Origin: Escherichia coli
GTDB taxonomy: Bacteria > Pseudomonadota > Gammaproteobacteria > Enterobacterales > Enterobacteriaceae
Strand: one strand, 5' to 3'
DNA length: 64,000 nt
Assembly: GCF_036507355.1 (NCBI RefSeq)
Contig: NZ_AP027877.1
Shown here: piece by piece, positions 7,032-52,188 of the stretch
How the letters are laid out: every line of letters begins with the position of its first letter
How positions within the stretch are numbered: position 1 is the first letter of the stretch
Made by a program: the position numbers and the translations under genes
Notes under the pieces: model-generated
The model's database searches: none
The model's input: the letters and a program-made list of their open reading frames with translations, nothing else
What the model was told of the DNA's origin: nothing

Positions 7032-7222
7032 TTCTCCACCTCGTCTCTGTGAGCGGTGTTAACTTATTGTTTTACTTATACCCTATCATTAATGAATGCG
7101 CCAACTGTGATAGTGTCATCATTTTCAAAGCGTAAAATTGTGGCATTCTTCACTGTTCTATAAGTAAGACGTTTATTCTCCCTTTTCTTTCGTATTCCCG
7201 ATGATAAAAGGATGTCCCTGAT

Positions 7223-7231: not shown

Positions 7232-7286
7232 GGTGATGCTGCCAACTTACTGATTTAGTGTATGATGGTGTTTTTGAGGTGCTCCA

Positions 7287-7562
7287 GTGGCTTCTGTTTC
7301 TATCAGCTGTCCCTCCTGTTCAGCTACTGACGGGGTGGTGCGTAACGGCAAAAGCACCGCCGGACATCAGCGCTATCTCTGCTCTCACTGCCGTAAAACA
7401 TGGCAACTGCAGTTCACTTACACCGCTTCTCAACCCGGTACGCACCAGAAAATCATTGATATGGCCATGAATGGCGTTGGATGCCGGGCAACAGCCCGCA
7501 TTATGGGCATTGGCCTCAACACGATTTTACGTCACTTAAAAAACTCAGGCCGCAGTCGGTAA
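7287..7562 (+). CDS. insA: IS1 InsA
   Basis: ORF track 91 aa, [40 protein letters not shown]... Confidence 0.95.
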
Positions 7563-7984
7563 CCTCGCGCATACAGCCGGGCAGTGACGTCATCGTCTGC
7601 GCGGAAATGGACGAACAGTGGGGCTATGTCGGGGCTAAATCGCGCCAGCGCTGGCTGTTTTACGCGTATGACAGGCTCCGGAAGACGGTTGTTGCGCACG
7701 TATTCGGTGAACGCACGATGGCGACGCTGGGGCGTCTTATGAGCCTGCTGTCACCCTTTGACGTGGTGATATGGATGACGGATGGCTGGCCGCTGTATGA
7801 ATCCCGCCTGAAGGGAAAGCTGCACGTAATCAGCAAGCGATATACGCAGCGAATTGAGCGGCATAACCTGAATCTGAGGCAGCACCTGGCACGGCTGGGA
7901 CGGAAGTCGCTGTCGTTCTCAAAATCGGTGGAGCTGCATGACAAAGTCATCGGGCATTATCTGAACATAAAACACTATCAATAA
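7481..7984 (+). CDS. insB: IS1 InsB reading frame (expressed as InsAB' by -1 frameshift)
   Basis: ORF track 167 aa overlapping insA 3' end in the -1 frame. Confidence 0.9.
7538..7544 (+). other. IS1 programmed -1 ribosomal frameshift motif A AAA AAC
   Basis: ttaaaaaac lies in the insA frame (L-K-N) within the insA/insB overlap. Confidence 0.8.
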
Positions 7985-7999
7985 GTTGGAGTCATTACC

Positions 8000-8008
8000 G
8001 ATTAAGTT
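8000..8008. repeat. IS1 target-site duplication, right copy (GATTAAGTT)
   Basis: Identical 9-mer immediately right of IS1 right inverted repeat. Confidence 0.9.
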
Positions 8009-18487: not shown

Positions 18488-19034
<547 letters not shown>

Positions 19035-19040
19035 CAGAAA

Positions 19041-19454
<414 letters not shown>

Positions 19455-19762
19455 TTATTCAGCCTCCTGTCTGGGTCAGCCGAATCCCGGGGAGGCAAGG
19501 AACGTGTTAAAGGTCGGCTGAAAAATGACGCGTTATAGTACTTGTATGCCCCGCTAAACTCAAGGGCGGAGCAGAAATAAATCTCCCCTTTCGCAAATAA
19601 CCTCTAAACCGCTGATTTGAAGTTCATCACATTCCGTCACAGTGTTTTTTCGAACAACTGCATCAGAAATGGTCACCATCAACTTCTTTATCATTGATTA
19701 AAATTAAATCAGAAGATCATCACAGAGGAGAGCACATAAAGTCAGCCGTCGAGGAGGTATCT

Positions 19763-20038
19763 ATGTTCAGTCGAGTTTTAGCCCTTCTGGCTGTGCTTTT
19801 GCTAAGTGCAAATACATGGGCAGCCATTGAAATTAATAACCACCAGGCCAGAAATATGGACGATGTGCAAAGCTTAGGCGTGATTTATATCAATCATAAT
19901 TTCGCCACTGAAAGCGAAGCGCGTCAGGCATTAAATGAAGAGACAGATGCGCAGGGCGCAACGTACTACCACGTAATTCTGATGCGGGAACCGGGGAGTA
20001 ACGGCAATATGCACGCCAGCGCGGATATTTATCGCTAG
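19763..20038 (+). CDS. yjfY: DUF1471 (YhcN/BhsA-like) small periplasmic protein
   Basis: ORF track 19694..20038; ATG at 19763 gives MFSRVLALLAVLLLSANTWA (signal peptide), 91 aa. Confidence 0.85.
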   Translation: MFSRVLALLAVLLLSANTWAAIEINNHQARNMDDVQSLGVIYINHNFATESEARQALNEETDAQGATYYHVILMREPGSNGNMHASADIYR

Positions 20039-20078
20039 CACCAGGTATAACCAACGAAACATTGCCATAGTTTGCTTT

Positions 20079-20105
20079 GCCCCCTTCGCAGGGGGCATTT
20101 TTTTG
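20079..20105 (+). terminator. Rho-independent terminator after yjfY
   Basis: gcccccttcgcagggggc hairpin followed by atttttttt. Confidence 0.75.
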
Positions 20106-20167
20106 AAAAACGGCTGCGGAATCAGACCAGTTATCTCCCGAAGAAGGAAATTTCCGCAGCGCGTGTT

Positions 20168-20847
20168 TTACTTCTGCCCGTAATAAGCGTTGGGACCGTG
20201 CTTACGCATGAAGTGTTTATTCATCAGGTAGCTGTCGATGTGATTGAGTTGTGGGTTAATGCCGCGGGCAATCCACGCCATTTTCGCCACTTCTTCCATC
20301 ACCACCGCGTTATGCACCGCATCGTGAGCATCTTTCCCCCAGGCGAACGGCCCGTGCTGATACACCACAATTCCCGGCGTATGCAGCGGCTCGGCGTTGC
20401 CCAGCGTTTCGATAATCACTTTGCCGGTGTTCAGTTCATACTCGCCCTGCACCTCTTCTTCGCTTAACCCGCGCGTACACGGAATGTCGCCAAAGAAGTA
20501 GTCGGCGTGCGTGGTGCCTAACGCCGGGATCGCCAGCCCCGCCTGCGCCCATGCGGTAGCATGAGTTGAGTGGGTATGGACAATGCCGCCAAGCGACGGG
20601 TAACGACGGTAGAGTTCAAGATGCGTCGCGGTGTCGGAAGACGGACGATATTCCCCTTCCACCACCTTACCGCTCATATCGACCACCACCATATCGTCTG
20701 CTTTCATGGGGCGACGCCGCTGGGCTTGATCACCACCAGCCCGCGTTCGCGGTCGATAGCGCTGACGTTGCCCCAAGTAAAGGTCACCAGCCCATAGCGC
20801 GGCAGATCCATGTTGGCTTCAAACACCTGCTGTTTTAGCTTTTGCAT
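20168..20847 (-). pseudogene. ulaF: L-ribulose-5-phosphate 4-epimerase (class II aldolase family), apparently frameshifted
   Basis: N-terminal 47 codons ([46 protein letters not shown]) end at TGA 20704-20706; the rest ([18 protein letters not shown]...YYGQK) continues in another frame to 20168. Confidence 0.75.
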
Positions 20848-21701
20848 TATGCCGCCTCCACCATGCCCGCTTTCGCCATGCGCGCTTTCACCCAATCACG
20901 CGCTTTCGCCACTTCTGCCGCCGGGTCTTCCGCCGTTTCGCTCCACATCTCAATCAGGTATGGCCCGCAATAGCCACTCTGTTTGAGCGTTTCGAAACAA
21001 CGTTCGAAATCCACTACACCTTCGCCAAACGGCACGTTTTTGAAGACGCCCGGTTTGGTGTCTTTCACATGCACCGCGACGATATGCCCGATTCCGGCCT
21101 GCAACTCCATCTGCACGTCGTTATCCCACGCCGACAGGTTGCCGATATCCGGGTAGAGCTGGAACCACGGATTGTTGAGATAGTGCGCGTAGCCCAGCGC
21201 CTTGCTGATGGAGTTCATCAACGGATAATCCATGATCTCCATCGCCAGCGTCACCTGCGCGCGGCTTGCCATCTCAACGCTCTCTTTCAGGCCGTCACGG
21301 AAACGACGACGCGTTTCGTTATTGGCTTCCTGATAGTAAACGTCATAGCCCGCCAGCTGGATCACGCGAATACCGACATCCTGGGCGAACTGGATAGCTT
21401 TACGCATAATCTCCAGCCCCTGCGCCCGCACCGCGTCATCTTCACTGCCCAGCGGGAAACGACGATGAGCAGAAAGGCACATGGACGGCACGCGCACGCC
21501 GGTTTCAACAATCGCATTGACCAGCGCCAGACGCTGCTCGCGGCTCCAGTCGAGGCGCGACAGGCGCTCGTCCGTTTCATCTACCGACATCTCGACAAAA
21601 TCGAAGCCCAACGTTTTTGCCAGTTGCAGGCGTTCCAGCCAGCACTCCCCGGCGGGGAGCGCTTTTTCATAGATGCCAAGCGGGATTTGTTTGGACAACA
21701 T
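20847..21701 (-). CDS. ulaE: L-ribulose-5-phosphate 3-epimerase
   Basis: ORF track 284 aa; stop overlaps ulaF start (TAATG). Confidence 0.95.
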
Positions 21702-21710
21702 ATCCGCTCC

Positions 21711-22361
21711 TTAGCCCCACAGTTCAGCGATGGAACGTTTGAACTGACGTGCGGCTTCCACCGGAGAAGCGGCATCACGGATACTACGGCCCGCGATAAA
21801 GACGTGAATCGGAATGCCTTTGAACAGCGGCAGATCTTCCAGCGCCAGGCCTCCGGTGACGGTGACTTTGAAGCCCATATCGGAAAGACGTTTGATCGCG
21901 GTGATGTCCGCTTCGCCCCACGCCACGCCTGCGGCCTGCGCGTCACGGCTGCGGTGATAAACCACCTGCTGAATGCCTGCATCGCGCCACTGTTGCGCCT
22001 GTTCCCAGGTCCAGTAACCGGTCAGTTCGATCTGCACGTCGCCGTTAAACTCTTTTGCCACGTCCAGCGCGCCTTTGGCGGTGTTGATATCCGCACAGCA
22101 AATTACCGTCACCCAGTCAGCGTTGGCTTCGAAGCACATACGCGAAAGGATTTTGCCTGCATCGGCAATTTTGGCGTCTGCCAGTACGATTTTGTGCGGG
22201 TAGAGCGCTTTCAGGTCACGAACCGCACGCACGCCTTCGCCCACGCACAGAATGGTGCCCACTTCGATAATGTCGACTTCTTCGGCAATCAGGCGAGTGG
22301 TTTCGTAGGCGCTATCCATAGTCTGGTTGTCCAGCGCGACTTGCAACATCGGTAATGACAT
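21711..22361 (-). CDS. ulaD: 3-keto-L-gulonate-6-phosphate decarboxylase
   Basis: ORF track 21711..22514; internal ATG at 22359-22361 gives [24 protein letters not shown]..., 216 aa. Confidence 0.95.
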
Positions 22362-22374
22362 GTTCAATTCCTTC

Positions 22375-22839
22375 TTAAGCTGCCGCGTTGGTGCGGTCAA
22401 TGAGATCCAGTACTTCCTGCTCGGTACGGCAGGCGCGTAAACGGTCAAAATTCTCTTCATCTTCAAACAGGTTGACGATCTGCATGATACCCACTTCCTG
22501 GTGAGTATTGGCATCGACCGCCGCCATGGTGATGAGGATATCCACCGGATCGTTGTCGTCGTGGTTAAATTCCAGCGGCTTTTTCAGCGTTACCAGAGAG
22601 AAACCGGTTTTCTTAACACCCTCTTCCGGCCGCCCGTGCGGCATCGCCAGCCCCGGAGCGATAACGAAATAAGGGCCAAACTGTTCCACGCCATCCAGAA
22701 TCGCCTGGTAATAGCGCGGCTCGACAACGTCCGCCGCCACCAGCAGATCGACGCCGATTTTCACCGCGTCCTGCCAGGTTTCAGCTTCAGCCTGCAGGCG
22801 GATGGATTTATTTACAGCCAGCGAATCACGTAATTTCAT
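22375..22839 (-). CDS. ulaC: Ascorbate-specific PTS EIIA component
   Basis: ORF track 154 aa. Confidence 0.95.
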
Positions 22840-22848
22840 GGCGCGTCC

Positions 22849-23154
22849 TTACTTCACGTCCTGCGGGAAATGCTCTTTGATCACTTCCAGCAGTTTCGGG
22901 CCAAAGTCGGCAGGAGAGAGCATGTTGCGCACGCCAACCACGTATTTGTTGCCGGTCACGGTGATTTCGCCCGCAATGTGCGTAGAAGCGATGATGATAT
23001 CCGCGCCACTCAACTCGCTTTTGTACTCGCCAACCGCGCAGCTGTTTACCGTATGGTCAATGTTTGATTGGGTTAAAAACTGGTCCACTTTCATCTTCAT
23101 GATCATGGAACTGCCTTGTCCGTTGCCACACACAGCCAGAATACGTACGGTCAT
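22849..23154 (-). CDS. ulaB: Ascorbate-specific PTS EIIB component
   Basis: ORF track 22849..23160; start [16 protein letters not shown]..., 101 aa. Confidence 0.95.
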
Positions 23155-23169
23155 AATCAAAACTCCTTA

Positions 23170-24921
<1,752 letters not shown>

Positions 24922-25986
24922 ATGAGTAAAGTGAAAAGTATCACCCGTGAATCCTGGATCCTGAGCACTTTCCCGGAGTGGGGTAGCTGGTTGAATGAAG
25001 AAATTGAACAAGAACAGGTCGCTCCTGGCACATTTGCGATGTGGTGGCTTGGCTGCACCGGGATCTGGTTGAAATCGGAAGGTGGCACCAACGTTTGCGT
25101 TGATTTCTGGTGCGGCACTGGCAAACAAAGTCACGGTAACCCGTTAATGAAACAGGGTCACCAGATGCAGCGCATGGCTGGCGTGAAAAAACTGCAGCCA
25201 AACCTGCGTACCACCCCGTTTGTTCTTGATCCGTTTGCGATTCGCCAGATCGACGCGGTACTGGCGACTCACGATCACAACGATCATATCGACGTTAACG
25301 TCGCTGCTGCCGTGATGCAGAACTGTGCTGATGACGTACCGTTTATCGGACCGAAAACCTGTGTGGATTTGTGGATTGGCTGGGGCGTACCGAAAGAGCG
25401 TTGCATCGTGGTCAAACCGGGCGATGTAGTAAAAGTGAAAGACATTGAAATTCATGCGCTTGATGCTTTCGACCGTACTGCACTGATCACCCTGCCTGCC
25501 GATCAAAAAGCGGCTGGCGTACTGCCAGATGGCATGGACGATCGCGCGGTGAACTACCTGTTCAAAACGCCTGGCGGCTCCCTGTATCACAGCGGCGACT
25601 CCCACTACTCTAACTATTATGCGAAGCACGGTAACGAACATCAGATCGACGTGGCGTTAGGATCGTACGGCGAAAACCCGCGCGGTATCACCGACAAAAT
25701 GACCAGCGCCGATATGCTGCGTATGGGTGAAGCGCTGAATGCGAAAGTGGTTATCCCGTTCCACCACGATATCTGGTCAAACTTCCAGGCCGATCCGCAA
25801 GAGATCCGCGTGCTGTGGGAGATGAAAAAAGATCGCCTGAAGTATGGCTTCAAGCCGTTTATCTGGCAGGTGGGCGGCAAATTTACCTGGCCGCTGGATA
25901 AAGACAACTTCGAGTACCACTATCCGCGCGGTTTCGATGATTGCTTCACTATTGAACCGGATCTGCCGTTCAAGTCATTCCTGTAA
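24922..25986 (+). CDS. ulaG: L-ascorbate-6-phosphate lactonase (metallo-beta-lactamase fold)
   Basis: ORF track 24916..25986; ATG at 24922 gives [20 protein letters not shown]..., 354 aa. Confidence 0.95.
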
Positions 25987-26093
25987 TCTGTCATTTATAC
26001 CGGGTAGCGTGGAGAAGTTCGCGCTATCCGGCGTAGTATTTCCTGGCTATTTCAAATATCATCTAAAAAAATCAAATTTTATCGGAATAGCTC

Positions 26094-26849
26094 ATGACTG
26101 AAGCACAAAGACATCAAATCCTCCTGGAAATGCTCGCACAATTGGGCTTTGTGACCGTTGAGAAAGTCGTTGAGCGTCTGGGAATTTCGCCTGCCACTGC
26201 GCGACGCGATATCAATAAACTTGACGAAAGCGGCAAACTGAAAAAAGTGCGCAATGGCGCAGAAGCTATTACCCAACAGCGCCCGCGCTGGACGCCGATG
26301 AATCTGCATCAGGCGCAGAATCACGATGAAAAAGTACGTATCGCTAAAGCGGCCTCGCAGCTGGTTAATCCGGGCGAAAGCGTAGTCATCAACTGCGGCT
26401 CCACCGCGTTTCTGCTTGGGCGGGAAATGTGTGGCAAGCCAGTGCAAATCATCACTAATTATCTACCGCTGGCAAATTACCTGATCGATCAAGAACATGA
26501 CAGCGTGATCATTATGGGCGGACAGTACAACAAAAGTCAGTCCATCACTTTAAGCCCGCAGGGCAGCGAAAACAGTCTCTATGCCGGGCACTGGATGTTT
26601 ACCAGCGGAAAAGGGCTGACCGCAGAAGGGTTGTATAAAACCGATATGCTGACAGCAATGGCAGAGCAGAAGATGCTGAGCGTGGTAGGGAAACTGGTGG
26701 TACTGGTTGATAGCAGTAAGATTGGCGAACGCGCGGGAATGCTTTTTAGCCGTGCCGATCAAATCGATATGCTTATCACCGGCAAAAATGCTAACCCGGA
26801 AATCCTGCAACAACTGGAAGCGCAAGGGGTCAGCATTCTGCGTGTTTAA
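26094..26849 (+). CDS. ulaR: DeoR-family repressor of the ula regulon
   Basis: ORF track 251 aa; N-terminal HTH and DeoR C-terminal domain. Confidence 0.95.
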
Positions 26850-27595
26850 AGATGCTGGCGGAAAAATGTCACGGCAGCATCTAACGCCTCAGGCGTAATG
26901 CGGTGACGCACGCCTGGCTGCCATGAACAGGTTAGCAGTTTATCCCGTCCCGTCTCGCTTAAGGCCTGCTGCAAACGTAGTGATTCGTCGGCAGGCACAA
27001 CGTCATCGTCGAGGCCATGCCACAGCAGTAGAGGTCTGTCACTAAGTTGTTCCAGGTGGTTTGTCGCTTCCCACTCTGCCAGCGGCGCGACAATGTTATT
27101 GAATTCATTCTGCTGTGCTGTCGTTTCAGGTATCAGCGGTGGAAACAGTGAACGGGCGAGCGATGTAAAATAGCCCGATCCCATCATGCTGGCGGTACAT
27201 TTCACCGTGGGGTGGCGAGCGGTAATTCCCAGTGCCGTCATCGCGCCCATCGACGCGCCACCGACTGCCAGACGGTCATCAAGCAGCCAGTTTTCTTCGG
27301 CTATTGCCGCACGTAAAGTAGTGAATTCCTGCATACTTTGTAGCAAGATTTGCCAGAATTGATTTAACCGCCGCGCTGCGTCACCACTAAAACGACTACC
27401 GTGATCGGGCGCATCCGGCATGATCACCCGCAAACCAGCCTGCGCCAGCGCAACGGCAAAATAGCTATACACCAGACTGGACGAAGTAAAGCCGTGATAA
27501 AAAATCGCGCACGGTAACGGGGTATCTTTTTGTCCGACAGGATAAGCATGAAGAACGGGAATATCTGCCAGCTCGCGTGATTCTATTTCAATCAT
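26846..27595 (-). CDS. yjfP: Esterase (alpha/beta hydrolase)
   Basis: ORF track 249 aa; GASMG nucleophile-elbow motif. Confidence 0.9.
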
Positions 27596-27776
27596 CTGTC
27601 TCTCCTTTTTGTCTGGTATGACATGAAGAAATCCTTAGCACAAGTTTCTGCTGGCGGTATTAGTTCATAATGTTGAGATGTGGGTTACGCTTTCGTCACG
27701 TTTTCATTCGAAAATCGCGTACCAGGTAACAATTCGGGAACATTCCCCCAAAGTTAAATTAATAAGGCACTACACT

Positions 27777-28106
27777 ATGGTTAGCAGGAAACGTAATAGC
27801 GTTATTTACCGGTTTGCCAGTTTATTATTGGTGTTGATGTTAAGTGCCTGTAGCGCACTGCAAGGTACGCCACAGCCAGCACCGCCAGTAACCGACCATC
27901 CGCAAGAGATTCGCCGCGACCAGACGCAAGGGTTACAGCGAATAGGTAGCGTAAGCACGATGGTTCGGGGTTCTCCGGATGACGCATTAGCAGAAATCAA
28001 AGCGAAAGCTGTCGCTGCAAAAGCTGATTATTACGTTGTCGTCATGGTGGACGAAACCATCGTGACAGGACAGTGGTATTCACACGCCATTTTGTACCGT
28101 AAATAA
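27777..28106 (+). CDS. bsmA: Biofilm stress and motility protein A (DUF1471, lipoprotein-like signal)
   Basis: ORF track 27678..28106; ATG at 27777 gives MVSRKRNSVIYRFASLLLVLMLSAC..., 109 aa. Confidence 0.9.
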   Translation: MVSRKRNSVIYRFASLLLVLMLSACSALQGTPQPAPPVTDHPQEIRRDQTQGLQRIGSVSTMVRGSPDDALAEIKAKAVAAKADYYVVVMVDETIVTGQWYSHAILYRK

Positions 28107-28254
28107 ATCAGACAACTTACATAGTCAGCTTTACATTGCTTTGCGTCCCTATGCGTTTACCTGTGCACAATAAATTACCGGCTGGAAGCCTGGGCGTTTA
28201 TTACCGCGATGGAATGCCCTGCAACATGTGGGGAAACGAAAAATGGAGCTGACG

Positions 28255-28530
28255 ATGAAACAATTACTTGCCTCACCCTCGCTGCAATTAGTGACTTATC
28301 CTGCGAGCGCCACGGCACAGTCTGCAGAATTCGCCAGTGCTGACTGCGTGACGGGCCTGAATGAAATAGGTCAGATCTCAGTTAGCAATATTTCAGGGGA
28401 TCCGCAGGACGTGGAACGTATCGTGGCGTTAAAGGCCGATGAACAAGGTGCGTCATGGTACCGCATTATTACCATGTACGAAGACCAGCAGTCTGATAAC
28501 TGGCGCGTACAGGCGATACTGTATGCATGA
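28255..28530 (+). CDS. yjfN: DUF1471 small periplasmic protein
   Basis: ORF track 28228..28530; ATG at 28255 gives MKQLLASPSLQLVTYPASATA..., 91 aa. Confidence 0.85.
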   Translation: MKQLLASPSLQLVTYPASATAQSAEFASADCVTGLNEIGQISVSNISGDPQDVERIVALKADEQGASWYRIITMYEDQQSDNWRVQAILYA

Positions 28531-28564
28531 GTGTCATCTACAGCAAATGAACAATGCCGGATGC

Positions 28565-28599
28565 GGCGCGAGCGCCTTGTCCGGCCTACAATTTTCACA
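28565..28599. repeat. REP element
   Basis: gccggatgcggcgcgagcgccttgtccggcctac. Confidence 0.7.
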
Positions 28600-28646
28600 T
28601 ATTTCATTGAGTTAATCGAAACCAGCGTCGCATCAGTCGTATACGC

Positions 28647-30272
28647 TTACACACACACTCCCCCCGTCGCCCGCAGCAATAAATCATTCTGGATCTGCTC
28701 TGACAACCGTACGCCGCCGCGCGTATCTAACATCACCTGACACCACGCCTGCGCCATTGGCGGAGAGGCATATTTCAACATTTGCGCACCGCAGCCCAGC
28801 AGGAATAGCTGATGAGTAATCTCTCGCCCCAGTTCTTCAGCTGGCTTACGCAGCTGCTGCTGTAAACGACGAACCGCGCGATCAAAATAGCGATCCTGCC
28901 CTTTCACTTCCACAAATGCTTCCGACAATAAGTCGTATACGCCCGCTTGCTTATTGAGAACGCGCAACACATCCAGGCACATAATATTGCCGGAACCTTC
29001 CCAAATACTGTTTACCGGCATCTCCCGGTAAAGCCGCGGCAGCTCGCTCTCCTCGCAATAACCAATGCCGCCCAGCACCTCCATCGCTTCGGCCACAAAC
29101 GGCATACCTCGTTTGCAGATCACAAATTTTGCCGCAGGCGTAAATAAACGCGCCCACAGGGCTTCTTTGGCATCGGCACGCCGGTCCCACGCTCGCGCAA
29201 GACGAAACAGCAACGCCGTTTGCCCTTCAAGCTGAAGTGCCATGCGACTTAAGACATGACGCATAAGGGGCTGTTGGATCAATGGATTACCAAAAACATG
29301 GCGTTGATGTGCATGATAAATCGCCAGCGAAAATGCACGGCGCATCATGGCATGGCTACCCAGGGCGCAATCAAAACGCGTCATCCCCCCCATTTTCAGG
29401 ATCAGACGAATTCCTTCCCCTTCCTGCCCCAATAACCAGCCAATGGCATCCTGAAACTCCACTTCGCAACTGGCGTTAGAGCGATTACCCAGCTTATCTT
29501 TCAGCCGCTCGAGGCGAATCGCGTTGCGTTGCCCGTCAGGCAAAAAGCGCGGCACAAAAAAGCAGGACAGACCGCCCGCGGTCTGCGCCAGCACCAGATG
29601 CGCATCGCTTTGCGGCACCGAGAAAAACCATTTATGCCCCACCAGCCGATAAGAGCCATCTTCCAAACGCTCTGCACGGGTGGTGTTGCTCATGACATCG
29701 GAACCGCCCTGCTTTTCCGTCATTCCCATGCCAATCAACAAACCGCGTTTTTGCCCACCTGGCAATAAGTGAGAATCGTAGCGATCGCTCAACAGCGGCG
29801 TGGTCCAGTCCTGAAACGGCGCGGGTAACATCTGTAACAACAATGGCGTGGCGGCAAAGGTCATCGTTATTGGACATAACGACCCAGCCTCAACCTGCGC
29901 ATGTAACATAAAACGCGCCGCGCGCGCCACAAATGCGCCGGAGCGAGCGTCTTCTTCCCAGGCAAGATTGTGCACCCGATTGGTACATAGTGCCTGCATC
30001 AGCAGGTGCCAGGCGGGGTGAAAACGCACATCGTCCAGACGGCGTCCTTGCGCATCGTAGCGCAATAATTCAGGCGGATTCACATTCGCCAGCCGCCCCA
30101 GTTCAAGGGATTCAGCCGTTCCTAACTGCTGACCAATACTGGCTAGAAAATCGCTATCCCAGCCAGCACCTTCACGCGTTACCGCTTCGCAAAGCGCGCC
30201 ATCAGACAGGTATAAGTTGCTGTTATTTAATGGTATAGCTTGATTAAAAACGATGTGAGTTTGCCAGTGCAC
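28647..30272 (-). CDS. aidB: Adaptive-response protein AidB (acyl-CoA dehydrogenase family)
   Basis: ORF track 28647..30290; start taken at GTG 30270-30272 (VHWQTH...), 541 aa. Confidence 0.92.
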   Translation of the reverse strand: MHWQTHIVFNQAIPLNNSNLYLSDGALCEAVTREGAGWDSDFLASIGQQLGTAESLELGRLANVNPPELLRYDAQGRRLDDVRFHPAWHLLMQALCTNRVHNLAWEEDARSGAFVARAARFMLHAQVEAGSLCPITMTFAATPLLLQMLPAPFQDWTTPLLSDRYDSHLLPGGQKRGLLIGMGMTEKQGGSDVMSNTTRAERLEDGSYRLVGHKWFFSVPQSDAHLVLAQTAGGLSCFFVPRFLPDGQRNAIRLERLKDKLGNRSNASCEVEFQDAIGWLLGQEGEGIRLILKMGGMTRFDCALGSHAMMRRAFSLAIYHAHQRHVFGNPLIQQPLMRHVLSRMALQLEGQTALLFRLARAWDRRADAKEALWARLFTPAAKFVICKRGMPFVAEAMEVLGGIGYCEESELPRLYREMPVNSIWEGSGNIMCLDVLRVLNKQAGVYDLLSEAFVEVKGQDRYFDRAVRRLQQQLRKPAEELGREITHQLFLLGCGAQMLKYASPPMAQAWCQVMLDTRGGVRLSEQIQNDLLLRATGGVCV

Positions 30273-51889: not shown

Positions 51890-51965
<76 letters not shown>

Positions 51966-52000
51966 TTGGGTGGTCTGTGCCTTACAGCACTTTCAAATTT

Positions 52001-52076
<76 letters not shown>

Positions 52077-52112
52077 TTGGGTGGTCTGTGCTTTACAGCA
52101 CTTTTCAAATTT

Positions 52113-52188
<76 letters not shown>

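Follow-up and report, generated by a model that had tools for sequence, protein, structure and literature searches.

DUF1471 paralogues and their known linkages

According to passages of Eletsky et al. (2014, PLoS One 9:e101787; PMC4092069), Escherichia coli possesses ten paralogues of the DUF1471 family (PF07338, now termed YdgH/BhsA/McbA-like), which fall into about twelve subfamilies overall; the same passages note that Salmonella yhcN adjoins a ycfR-like gene and regard the adjacency of yjfN and yjfO in Salmonella as a sign that the family expanded by duplication and divergence. Here, three of these paralogues, yjfY, bsmA (yjfO) and yjfN, are examined in a 64,000-nucleotide stretch of an E. 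coli genome (assembly GCF_036507355.1, contig NZ_AP027877.1), hereafter the window. The three genes constitute an old and non-random cluster. Local duplication is the probable origin of the whole trio, although this is far from assured, and the bsmA-yjfN pair taken by itself can be attributed to local duplication with considerable confidence.

Other arrangements of the family in E. coli K-12 resemble the trio in part. The paralogues ybiJ and mcbA (ybiM) likewise lie a few kilobases apart (837,665 and 841,796; 4 kb) and enclose the unrelated genes ybiI, ybiX and fiu, but this pair is younger and clearer, with 50% identity, 72 bits and membership in one BhsA/McbA/YbiJ cluster, whereas the members of the trio share 21-28% identity. 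YdgH (SssB) comprises three tandemly duplicated DUF1471 domains and has a similarly long loop of 16-18 residues; in contrast to the trio, however, duplication is confined to one gene at an unlinked locus, and the domains are mutually closest (hhalign scores of 93-109). YhcN is the best E. coli blastp paralogue of both YjfY (41 bits) and YjfN (41.6 bits) and a top NCBIfam match, yet its gene is unlinked (3.385 Mb) and the protein belongs to the form with a 14-residue loop.

Earlier publications already cover the genes and their family, including the ten paralogues of E. coli and the neighbouring position of yjfN and yjfO. The passages of Eletsky et al. (PMC4092069) do not tie yjfY (STM4389) to the pair, describe no compact form devoid of the ula regulon and give no support values; by comparison, the present analysis places yjfY in the same conserved block and measures phylogenetic support, which proves weak. 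The additions are therefore modest and consist of the inclusion of yjfY in this ancient block, an ancestral cluster of about 2 kb, the location of the ula regulon inside it and a three-residue loop indel that separates two classes of the family. Moreover, the order of duplications is beyond the resolution of a domain this short (about 60 residues), which cautions against reconstructing paralogue histories from such short proteins.

The trio and its gene products

In the matching E. coli region, the RefSeq order is rplI-rpsR-priB-rpsF (minus strand), yjfY (plus), ulaFEDCBA (minus), ulaG and ulaR (plus), yjfP (minus), bsmA and yjfN (plus) and aidB (minus). E. coli chromosomes match the corresponding segment of the window (19000-29500) with 98.9% identity, and 5,425 of 5,426 complete genomes possess it. 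The ends of the trio interval are exact, since position 19763 begins the ATG of yjfY and position 28530 is the final base of the yjfN stop codon. All three products exceed the PF07338 cut-off of 27 bits and align to essentially the whole 55-position model at their C-termini (Table 1). Domain scores, coordinates and RefSeq annotation thereby bear out the preliminary description of this DNA, which had recognized three DUF1471 paralogues of about 90-110 residues within about 9 kb. Its assignment of a signal peptide to each of them applies to YjfY, which features a Sec signal, but has to be amended for BsmA, whose signal is that of a lipoprotein, and for YjfN, whose signal core is only weakly hydrophobic in Escherichia.

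With regard to narrower families, the NCBIfam BsmA equivalog NF011433 (cut-off 100 bits) is passed by BsmA (152.1 bits), while YjfN (50.1) and YjfY (31.9) remain below. None of the three passes the YhcN equivalog NF033776 (cut-off 125 bits), to which YjfY scores 51.1, YjfN 52.5 and BsmA 27.4 bits; hence, neither YjfY nor YjfN is a YhcN equivalog.

The solved alpha+beta folds of the family, namely SrfN (2JNA/2MA8), YdgH (4EVU/2M2J) and YahO (2NOC/2MA4), were compared at the level of sequence only. YjfY matches SrfN 2JNA with E = 1e-6. Single-sequence searches of the PDB with BsmA and YjfN gave no useful match, and their ortholog profiles match weakly, that of YjfN to 2JNA, 2M2J and 4EVU (E of 7e-5 to 2e-3) and that of BsmA to 2JNA, 2MA4 and 2NOC (E of about 7e-3). 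Two further matches were judged spurious: that of the single BsmA sequence to a ribosomal uL13 chain (E = 1e-3 over 35 residues) and that of the YjfN profile to Protein-A chains over a 20-residue stretch.

The DUF1471 relatives retrieved belong, where named, to Enterobacteriaceae, Yersiniaceae, Erwiniaceae or Pectobacteriaceae, the exception being one record named Pseudomonas lundensis in the cluster of the Serratia protein. This agrees with the limitation of the family to Enterobacterales given in passages of PMC4092069 and PMC11705850.

Conservation and span of the cluster

A synteny scan with a YjfY profile and one genome per species yielded 78 loci, 68 of them complete, all from outside the Hafniaceae, Morganellaceae, Budviciaceae, Klebsiella and Raoultella. 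Every one of the 68 complete loci, which represent Escherichia, Citrobacter, Salmonella, Enterobacter, Lelliottia, Buttiauxella, Cedecea, Kosakonia, Leclercia, Silvania and Shimwellia, contains exactly three DUF1471 open reading frames in the same order and orientation. YjfY orthologues at these loci are 62-100% identical. The genes bsmA and yjfN have the same orientation in 69 loci, where a conserved spacer of about 150 bp lies between them, and are also adjacent in Serratia and Edaphovirga.

Outside the Enterobacteriaceae, the block is complete in Serratia liquefaciens, where the yjfY position between rpsF and yjfP is taken by a DUF1471 gene and bsmA, yjfN and aidB come next; the trio spans 1.95 kb without ula genes. 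Yersinia kristensenii lacks yjfN but has bsmA and a gene at the yjfY position, Edaphovirga has bsmA and yjfN without a gene at the yjfY position, and only bsmA occurs in Rouxiella, Pantoea and Pectobacterium, which makes bsmA the most widespread member of the cluster: none of the Enterobacterales lineages inspected lacks it at this site. The esterase gene yjfP keeps its place in Serratia, Yersinia, Edaphovirga, Rouxiella and Pantoea. The proteins encoded at the yjfY position of Yersiniaceae match YjfY best among E. coli proteins (67.8 and 62.4 bits versus 52 for YhcN), are its sister in about 45% of neighbour-joining (NJ) replicates and have genes followed by the same terminator; hence, they are YjfY orthologues. 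Since the full trio is found in Serratia with an orthologous gene at the yjfY position, the cluster predates the split of Enterobacteriaceae and Yersiniaceae.

Chance placement accounts poorly for this arrangement. In simulations with a 4.64-Mb genome, any three of ten randomly placed genes fell within 8,768 bp with P = 0.0013 and within 2.1 kb with P = 7.8e-5, and two of ten fall within 500 bp with P of about 0.01.

The shorter of these spans is relevant because the 8.8-kb extent of the trio in the window is due to the ula regulon, which comprises vitamin-C genes and sits between yjfY and yjfP. About 15 Enterobacteriaceae loci lack the whole regulon, among them those of Citrobacter sp. Awk 4, Enterobacter vonholyi, Cedecea colo, Dryocola, Shimwellia and several Buttiauxella and Kosakonia; at these loci, yjfY and the opposite-strand gene yjfP are 350-430 bp apart, bsmA and yjfN come next, and the trio occupies about 2.1 kb. 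The regulon is absent from this site in Serratia and Yersinia as well. The clustering reported previously is accordingly real, while its spacing of about 9 kb is secondary and stems from the regulon inside the cluster. In the ula-less loci of E. vonholyi and Citrobacter sp. Awk 4, remnants of 17-46 nt of the ulaR 3' end persist, which points to secondary deletion of ula in these two genera; no ulaR remnant was found in the ula-less loci of Buttiauxella and Cedecea. Within several genera, presence or absence of the regulon is polymorphic at exactly this site.

Unrelated genes have also entered the interval between yjfP and bsmA, with a gene for a methyl-accepting chemotaxis protein (MCP) in Pantoea (locus L097, 3013-4944) and an MCP gene, rtcB and an RF-1-like prfH in Pectobacterium (P. 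polaris, locus L096, 967-4884), which marks this interval as a recurrent insertion site. At the yjfY position of the same Pantoea locus, between rpsF and yjfP, lies an open reading frame for 68 aa (1853-2059) with a signal-peptide-like N-terminus. Its product has no Pfam match and a marginal likeness to the Serratia protein encoded at the yjfY position (22.7 bits, E = 0.004), and may represent a decayed remnant.

Origin of the three genes

The preference for local duplication of all three genes follows from their ancient linkage and shared orientation, from the other local pairs of the family and from a shared indel class. The segment between the conserved Tyr and Ala comprises 17 residues in YjfY, BsmA and YjfN, in the Yersiniaceae protein encoded at the yjfY position and in a group of Erwiniaceae proteins, and 16-18 residues in most YdgH domains; it comprises 14 residues in YhcN, BhsA/McbA/YbiJ, YahO and RclB. 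This places the trio on one side of the main indel split of the family, apart from YhcN.

For comparison of the sequences, the seven other K-12 paralogues were added to the trio, giving ten in all. Among the 120 matches listed in a homologue search with YjfY, all were close orthologues with at least 82% identity, so that other subfamilies stayed out of reach. It was replaced by a profile search of 1.84 billion 50% representatives, which gave 510 family clusters, of which the best 150 were used; many representatives were chimeric or frameshifted E. coli-like fragments, which were removed or down-weighted by filters on length and identity. Average-linkage clustering of these best 150 of the 510 clusters reproduces the known subfamilies. 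Trees were built by NJ with 200 bootstraps and by maximum likelihood (ML), the latter by scoring all 15 topologies of five clusters with a home-made matrix derived from BLOSUM62, a gamma shape fixed at alpha = 1, 68 columns and resampling of estimated log-likelihoods (RELL). Because subtrees within clusters were held fixed and RELL took the place of the approximately unbiased test, the ML values serve as a rough guide.

The sequences mildly support a sister relation of bsmA and yjfN. BsmA has YjfN as its best partner in blastp (36 bits), with subfamily hidden Markov models and in hhalign, where YjfN (91.5) precedes the Erwiniaceae group (89.5) and YhcN (72); YjfN, in turn, matches BsmA with 36.2 bits in blastp, after YhcN. 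In the full-data NJ tree the two are sisters, the exact split recurring in 28% of replicates and the sister relation in 34-36%, while no rival exceeds 9% and YjfN+YhcN reaches 0-2%. In the ML set with YhcN and the Erwiniaceae group as outgroups, BsmA+YjfN is part of the best tree with a RELL value of 0.71.

On the origin of yjfY, the sequences are uninformative to mildly contrary, and several observations weigh against a common local origin of the trio. Pairwise identities among the three proteins do not exceed the family background, and BsmA is as similar to YhcN as to YjfN (28%). In blastp, YjfY finds BsmA with 23.5 bits and YjfN not at all. The profile of YjfN scores higher with the Erwiniaceae group (106) and YhcN (102) than with BsmA (91), and that of YjfY scores 64 with the Erwiniaceae group, 55 with YhcN, 54 each with YjfN and YdgH domain 1, and 41 with BsmA. 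A clade of all three appears in 2% of NJ replicates, or 7% if two stray taxa are allowed. Its RELL value is 0.057 with YhcN and the BhsA group as outgroups, 0.21 with YhcN and the Erwiniaceae group, and 0.064 with the BhsA group and YdgH domain 1 (differences in log-likelihood of -1.3 to -3.7); in the same order, YjfY is drawn to an unlinked partner in each set, namely YhcN (0.48), the Erwiniaceae group (0.57) and YdgH domain 1 (0.69). Even BsmA+YjfN attains just 0.26 and 0.34 in the first and third sets. Furthermore, the opposite-strand gene yjfP between yjfY and bsmA is unlike the remnant of a simple head-to-tail duplication, and random placement as a null model overstates the improbability of independent arrivals, because the interval is prone to insertions. 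No topology is rejected, however, since all 15 lie within 3.5-5.3 log-likelihood units in every set.

The preliminary description had proposed an old tandem duplication, with a family phylogeny as the means of checking it and closer kinship of the paralogues to unlinked members as the outcome that would speak against it. The cluster is indeed old, conserved and non-random, but the phylogeny does not group the trio, the three-way clade being recovered neither by NJ (2-7%) nor by ML (RELL of 0.057-0.21). For YjfY, the trees lean towards unlinked relatives, to an extent far from significant.

These observations give some room to the alternative that bsmA and yjfN alone are tandem duplicates, while yjfY is a copy from an unlinked lineage (YhcN-like, YdgH-like or akin to the Erwiniaceae group) that landed in the insertion-prone interval beside the rpsF operon. 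Independent arrival of yjfY, which we consider possible but the less likely course, would account for the pairing of YjfY with unlinked subfamilies in the NJ tree and all three ML sets, for its unlinked best profile and blastp matches and for the intervening yjfP; it would also suit an interval that accepts foreign genes (ula, MCP, rtcB-prfH) and the occurrence of the YjfY subfamily in fewer lineages than BsmA. On the other hand, a third paralogue would land within 2 kb of the pair with P of only about 1e-4 to 1e-3 under random placement, YjfY has the 17-residue loop of BsmA and YjfN and not the short form of YhcN, and in Serratia YjfN matches the protein encoded at the yjfY position (41 bits) as well as it matches BsmA (42 bits). 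Moreover, the log-likelihood advantage of unlinked partners amounts to just 2-4 units on 68 columns, and relocation of a yjfY orthologue could have given rise to the Erwiniaceae group, given that Pantoea has no DUF1471 gene at the yjfY position. As a gene of the present locus, the Erwiniaceae group was discarded, since its members are encoded beside an RND-type (ACR_tran) transporter gene or elsewhere. That none of the three is a local duplicate, so that three independently derived DUF1471 genes gathered at a hot spot or are maintained side by side by selection and bsmA and yjfN are neighbours by coincidence, is most improbable: the low NJ and ML values of the pair in part of the analyses and the equal identity of BsmA to YjfN and YhcN would fit, but the adjacency has a chance probability of only about 0.01, is kept in orientation and spacing across 69 loci and in further genera, joins BsmA to its constant best partner and coincides with the most frequent sister relation in the trees, for which RELL is highest when the Erwiniaceae group is included.

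The ancestor of Enterobacteriaceae and Yersiniaceae possessed a block of rpsF, yjfY, yjfP, bsmA, yjfN and aidB, in which the trio spanned about 2 kb. The order of duplications and the local origin of yjfY are matters that we infer: bsmA would be the oldest resident, yjfN would be a tandem duplicate of bsmA or of a precursor common to both, and yjfY would have arisen by a further local duplication too old for a domain of 57-68 residues to record. Subsequently, the ula regulon of about 6.7 kb would have been inserted between yjfY and yjfP in Enterobacteriaceae and lost again in several lineages. After duplication, the copies would have diverged, YjfY becoming a soluble periplasmic protein with an upstream region of the sigma-70/CRP type and its own terminator, BsmA a lipoprotein on a Pro-rich tether with a promoter recognized by sigma-S, and YjfN a Cpx-associated activator of the protease DegP.

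Divergence of control and of export signals

A simple scan for sigma-70 consensus promoters detected none upstream of yjfY, bsmA or yjfN and gave three sites in 9.4 kb compared with 9.3 expected; as the scan is uninformative, evidence for separate promoters was drawn from conservation and from the literature, and it is from these that we infer which hexamers or boxes function at the trio.

The candidate yjfY promoter has the same hexamers as a constitutive sigma-70 (RpoD) promoter that Shimada et al. (PMC3946193) list on the yjfY side. In the spacer between yjfY and rpsF, a site for CRP was reported by chromatin immunoprecipitation sequencing in enterotoxigenic E. coli (PMC4287617) and is matched in the window; the region around it aligned poorly between genera. 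An Rfam RpsF leader (RF02893, 110 bits) is located at 19434-19518 on the minus strand, directly upstream of rpsF, and its position places the rpsF promoter within the same spacer of about 325 bp as the yjfY promoter and the CRP site. At its N-terminus, YjfY has a clear hydrophobic core (9-residue Kyte-Doolittle maximum of 3.44) and an A-x-A site. Downstream, an 8-bp stem rich in G+C (20078-20097; -15.6 kcal/mol) precedes a run of seven T, and a comparable hairpin with a T-run is present 3' of yjfY in 63 of 68 related loci as well as 3' of its positional counterpart in Serratia and Yersinia (GCCCCC...GGGGGC), so that the strong terminator assigned to yjfY in the preliminary description stands. 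On the minus strand it lacks a T-run and is therefore not a canonical terminator for ulaF.

Upstream of bsmA, a conserved CATAAT in an alignment of 14 loci would be the -10 element. The bsmA/yjfP spacer displays a chromatin immunoprecipitation peak of sigma-S polymerase and forms a sigma-S-specific open complex (PMC4447067). Two palindromes, TTTTCATTCGAAAA (27701-27714) and GGGAACATTCCC (27736-27747), lie 3' of CATAAT in the upstream or 5' leader region; both are conserved across genera from Escherichia to Buttiauxella, and neither matched a known binding protein or RNA family. The protein consists of a lipobox (LSAC, Cys25), a Pro-rich tether and the C-terminal DUF1471 domain; Cys25 is invariant within L-[SA]-[AG]-C, and the TPxPPPP tether is retained from Escherichia to Pantoea and Pectobacterium. 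BsmA functions in biofilm formation and peroxide stress.

The genes bsmA and yjfN are separated by a spacer of 148 bp on the plus strand, in which no terminator-like hairpin was detected. This spacer harbours a CpxR-like box as part of a conserved block: the spacers of 68 of 69 loci contain a box with at most one mismatch, and its offset is similar throughout the 14 loci inspected. Across the window, such boxes number nine compared with 2.9 expected. In addition, yjfN is a member of the CpxR iModulon (PMC7657598). The claim that each of the three genes has a promoter region of its own is thus backed by conservation and literature, with the reservation that it is uncertain for yjfN owing to the missing terminator after bsmA. 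Regulatory divergence, also put forward earlier, fits the differing published controls and is plausible, with sigma-70 and CRP assigned to yjfY, sigma-S to bsmA and Cpx to yjfN.

The protein YjfN is said to be a periplasmic 'suicide activator' of DegP, in work ascribed to Kim et al. (2018, J Bacteriol). It has a cleavage-type motif (AQSA), and in all five Escherichia species sampled the hydrophobic core of its signal is degraded (MKQLLASPSLQLVTYPASATAQSA), with a 9-residue Kyte-Doolittle maximum of 1.19, whereas other genera reach 1.74-2.44 and the nine other E. coli paralogues 2.0-3.4. The responsible change is an Escherichia-specific burst of point substitutions in the signal-coding part (28255-28323), which adds two Pro, a Gln and a Tyr to the core; the mature protein is conserved nonetheless. 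A compensated frameshift was discarded as the cause, because the DNA alignment contains point substitutions only. It is conceivable, but quite unlikely, that yjfY, yjfP, bsmA and yjfN form a selectively kept envelope-proteostasis module older than the split of Enterobacteriaceae and Yersiniaceae, in which YjfY, BsmA and YjfN, possibly with YjfP, would act in one pathway and the weakened YjfN signal of Escherichia would be an adaptive retuning of the amount of the periplasmic activator.

Between the convergent genes yjfN and aidB lies a palindrome akin to repetitive extragenic palindromic (REP) elements. The sequence 3' of yjfN yields no more than a weak hairpin (-7.1 kcal/mol), and a canonical terminator was not found there.

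Table 1. Features of the yjfY-yjfN region (positions in the window)
Feature	Position	Strand	Remarks
CRP site	19616..19631		TGTGATGAACTTCAAA (reverse complement); yjfY/rpsF spacer; matches site found in enterotoxigenic E. coli
Candidate yjfY promoter	19694..19720	+	TTGATT-15-GATCAT
yjfY	19763..20038	+	91 aa; PF07338, 71.6 bits; classical Sec signal peptide (MFSRVLALLAVLLLSANTWA, followed by AIE)
yjfY intrinsic terminator	20078..20104	+	stem TGCCCCCT/AGGGGGCA, loop TCGC, then T7; -15.6 kcal/mol
ula regulon	20168..26849		ulaF pseudogene and ulaEDCBA (-), ulaG and ulaR (+); between yjfY and yjfP
yjfP	26846..27595	-	esterase; invariant opposite-strand gene between yjfY position and bsmA
Candidate bsmA -10 element	27666..27671	+	CATAAT; about 105 nt 5' of ATG
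bsmA (yjfO)	27777..28106	+	109-aa lipoprotein; PF07338, 56.5 bits; NCBIfam BsmA, 152 bits
CpxR-like box	28130..28144	-	GCAAAGCAATGTAAA; bsmA-yjfN spacer; one mismatch to GTAAA-N5-GTAAA
yjfN	28255..28530	+	91 aa; PF07338, 64.1 bits; N-terminal signal atypically weak in Escherichia
REP-like palindrome	28556..28589		GCCGGATGCGGCGCGAGCGCCTTGTCCGGCCTAC; between yjfN and aidB

Further observations in the window

The gene ulaF (20168-20847, minus strand) is a pseudogene: near position 20710 it has lost 7 bp, which read TTTCGTA in the E. coli reference strand, so that the frame changes from about residue 47 onwards (...KPSGVAP*). This deletion is absent from all 5,426 complete E. coli genomes, the best identity across the site being 95.3%, which equals the 7-nt gap. 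An IS1 copy is inserted at 7232-8003, just within cpdB at a distance of a few bases from its expected 5' end, and next to a match to the small RNA ES239 (7098-7220); it is 99.6% identical to IS1A of a K-12 derivative, and in K-12-type strains covering the IS1/cpdB stretch IS1 lies at another place, downstream of cpdB. For three separate stretches of the window, no complete E. coli genome exceeds 98.9-99.0% identity. Taken together, these values, the IS1 in cpdB and the private ulaF frameshift may point to a Shigella-like or otherwise decaying lineage of Escherichia that the E. coli RefSeq set does not include.

At 51890-52188 on the minus strand, tRNA-Gly(GCC) is encoded by three genes in tandem, which score equally in Rfam and are spaced 111-112 bp apart. 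Between msrA and paeA, the interval 2330-2509 on the plus strand matches the Rfam small RNAs ES036/CssrF (39.3 bits, just over the threshold) and STnc450 (77 bits), and a CpxR-like box at 2438-2452 overlaps these matches.

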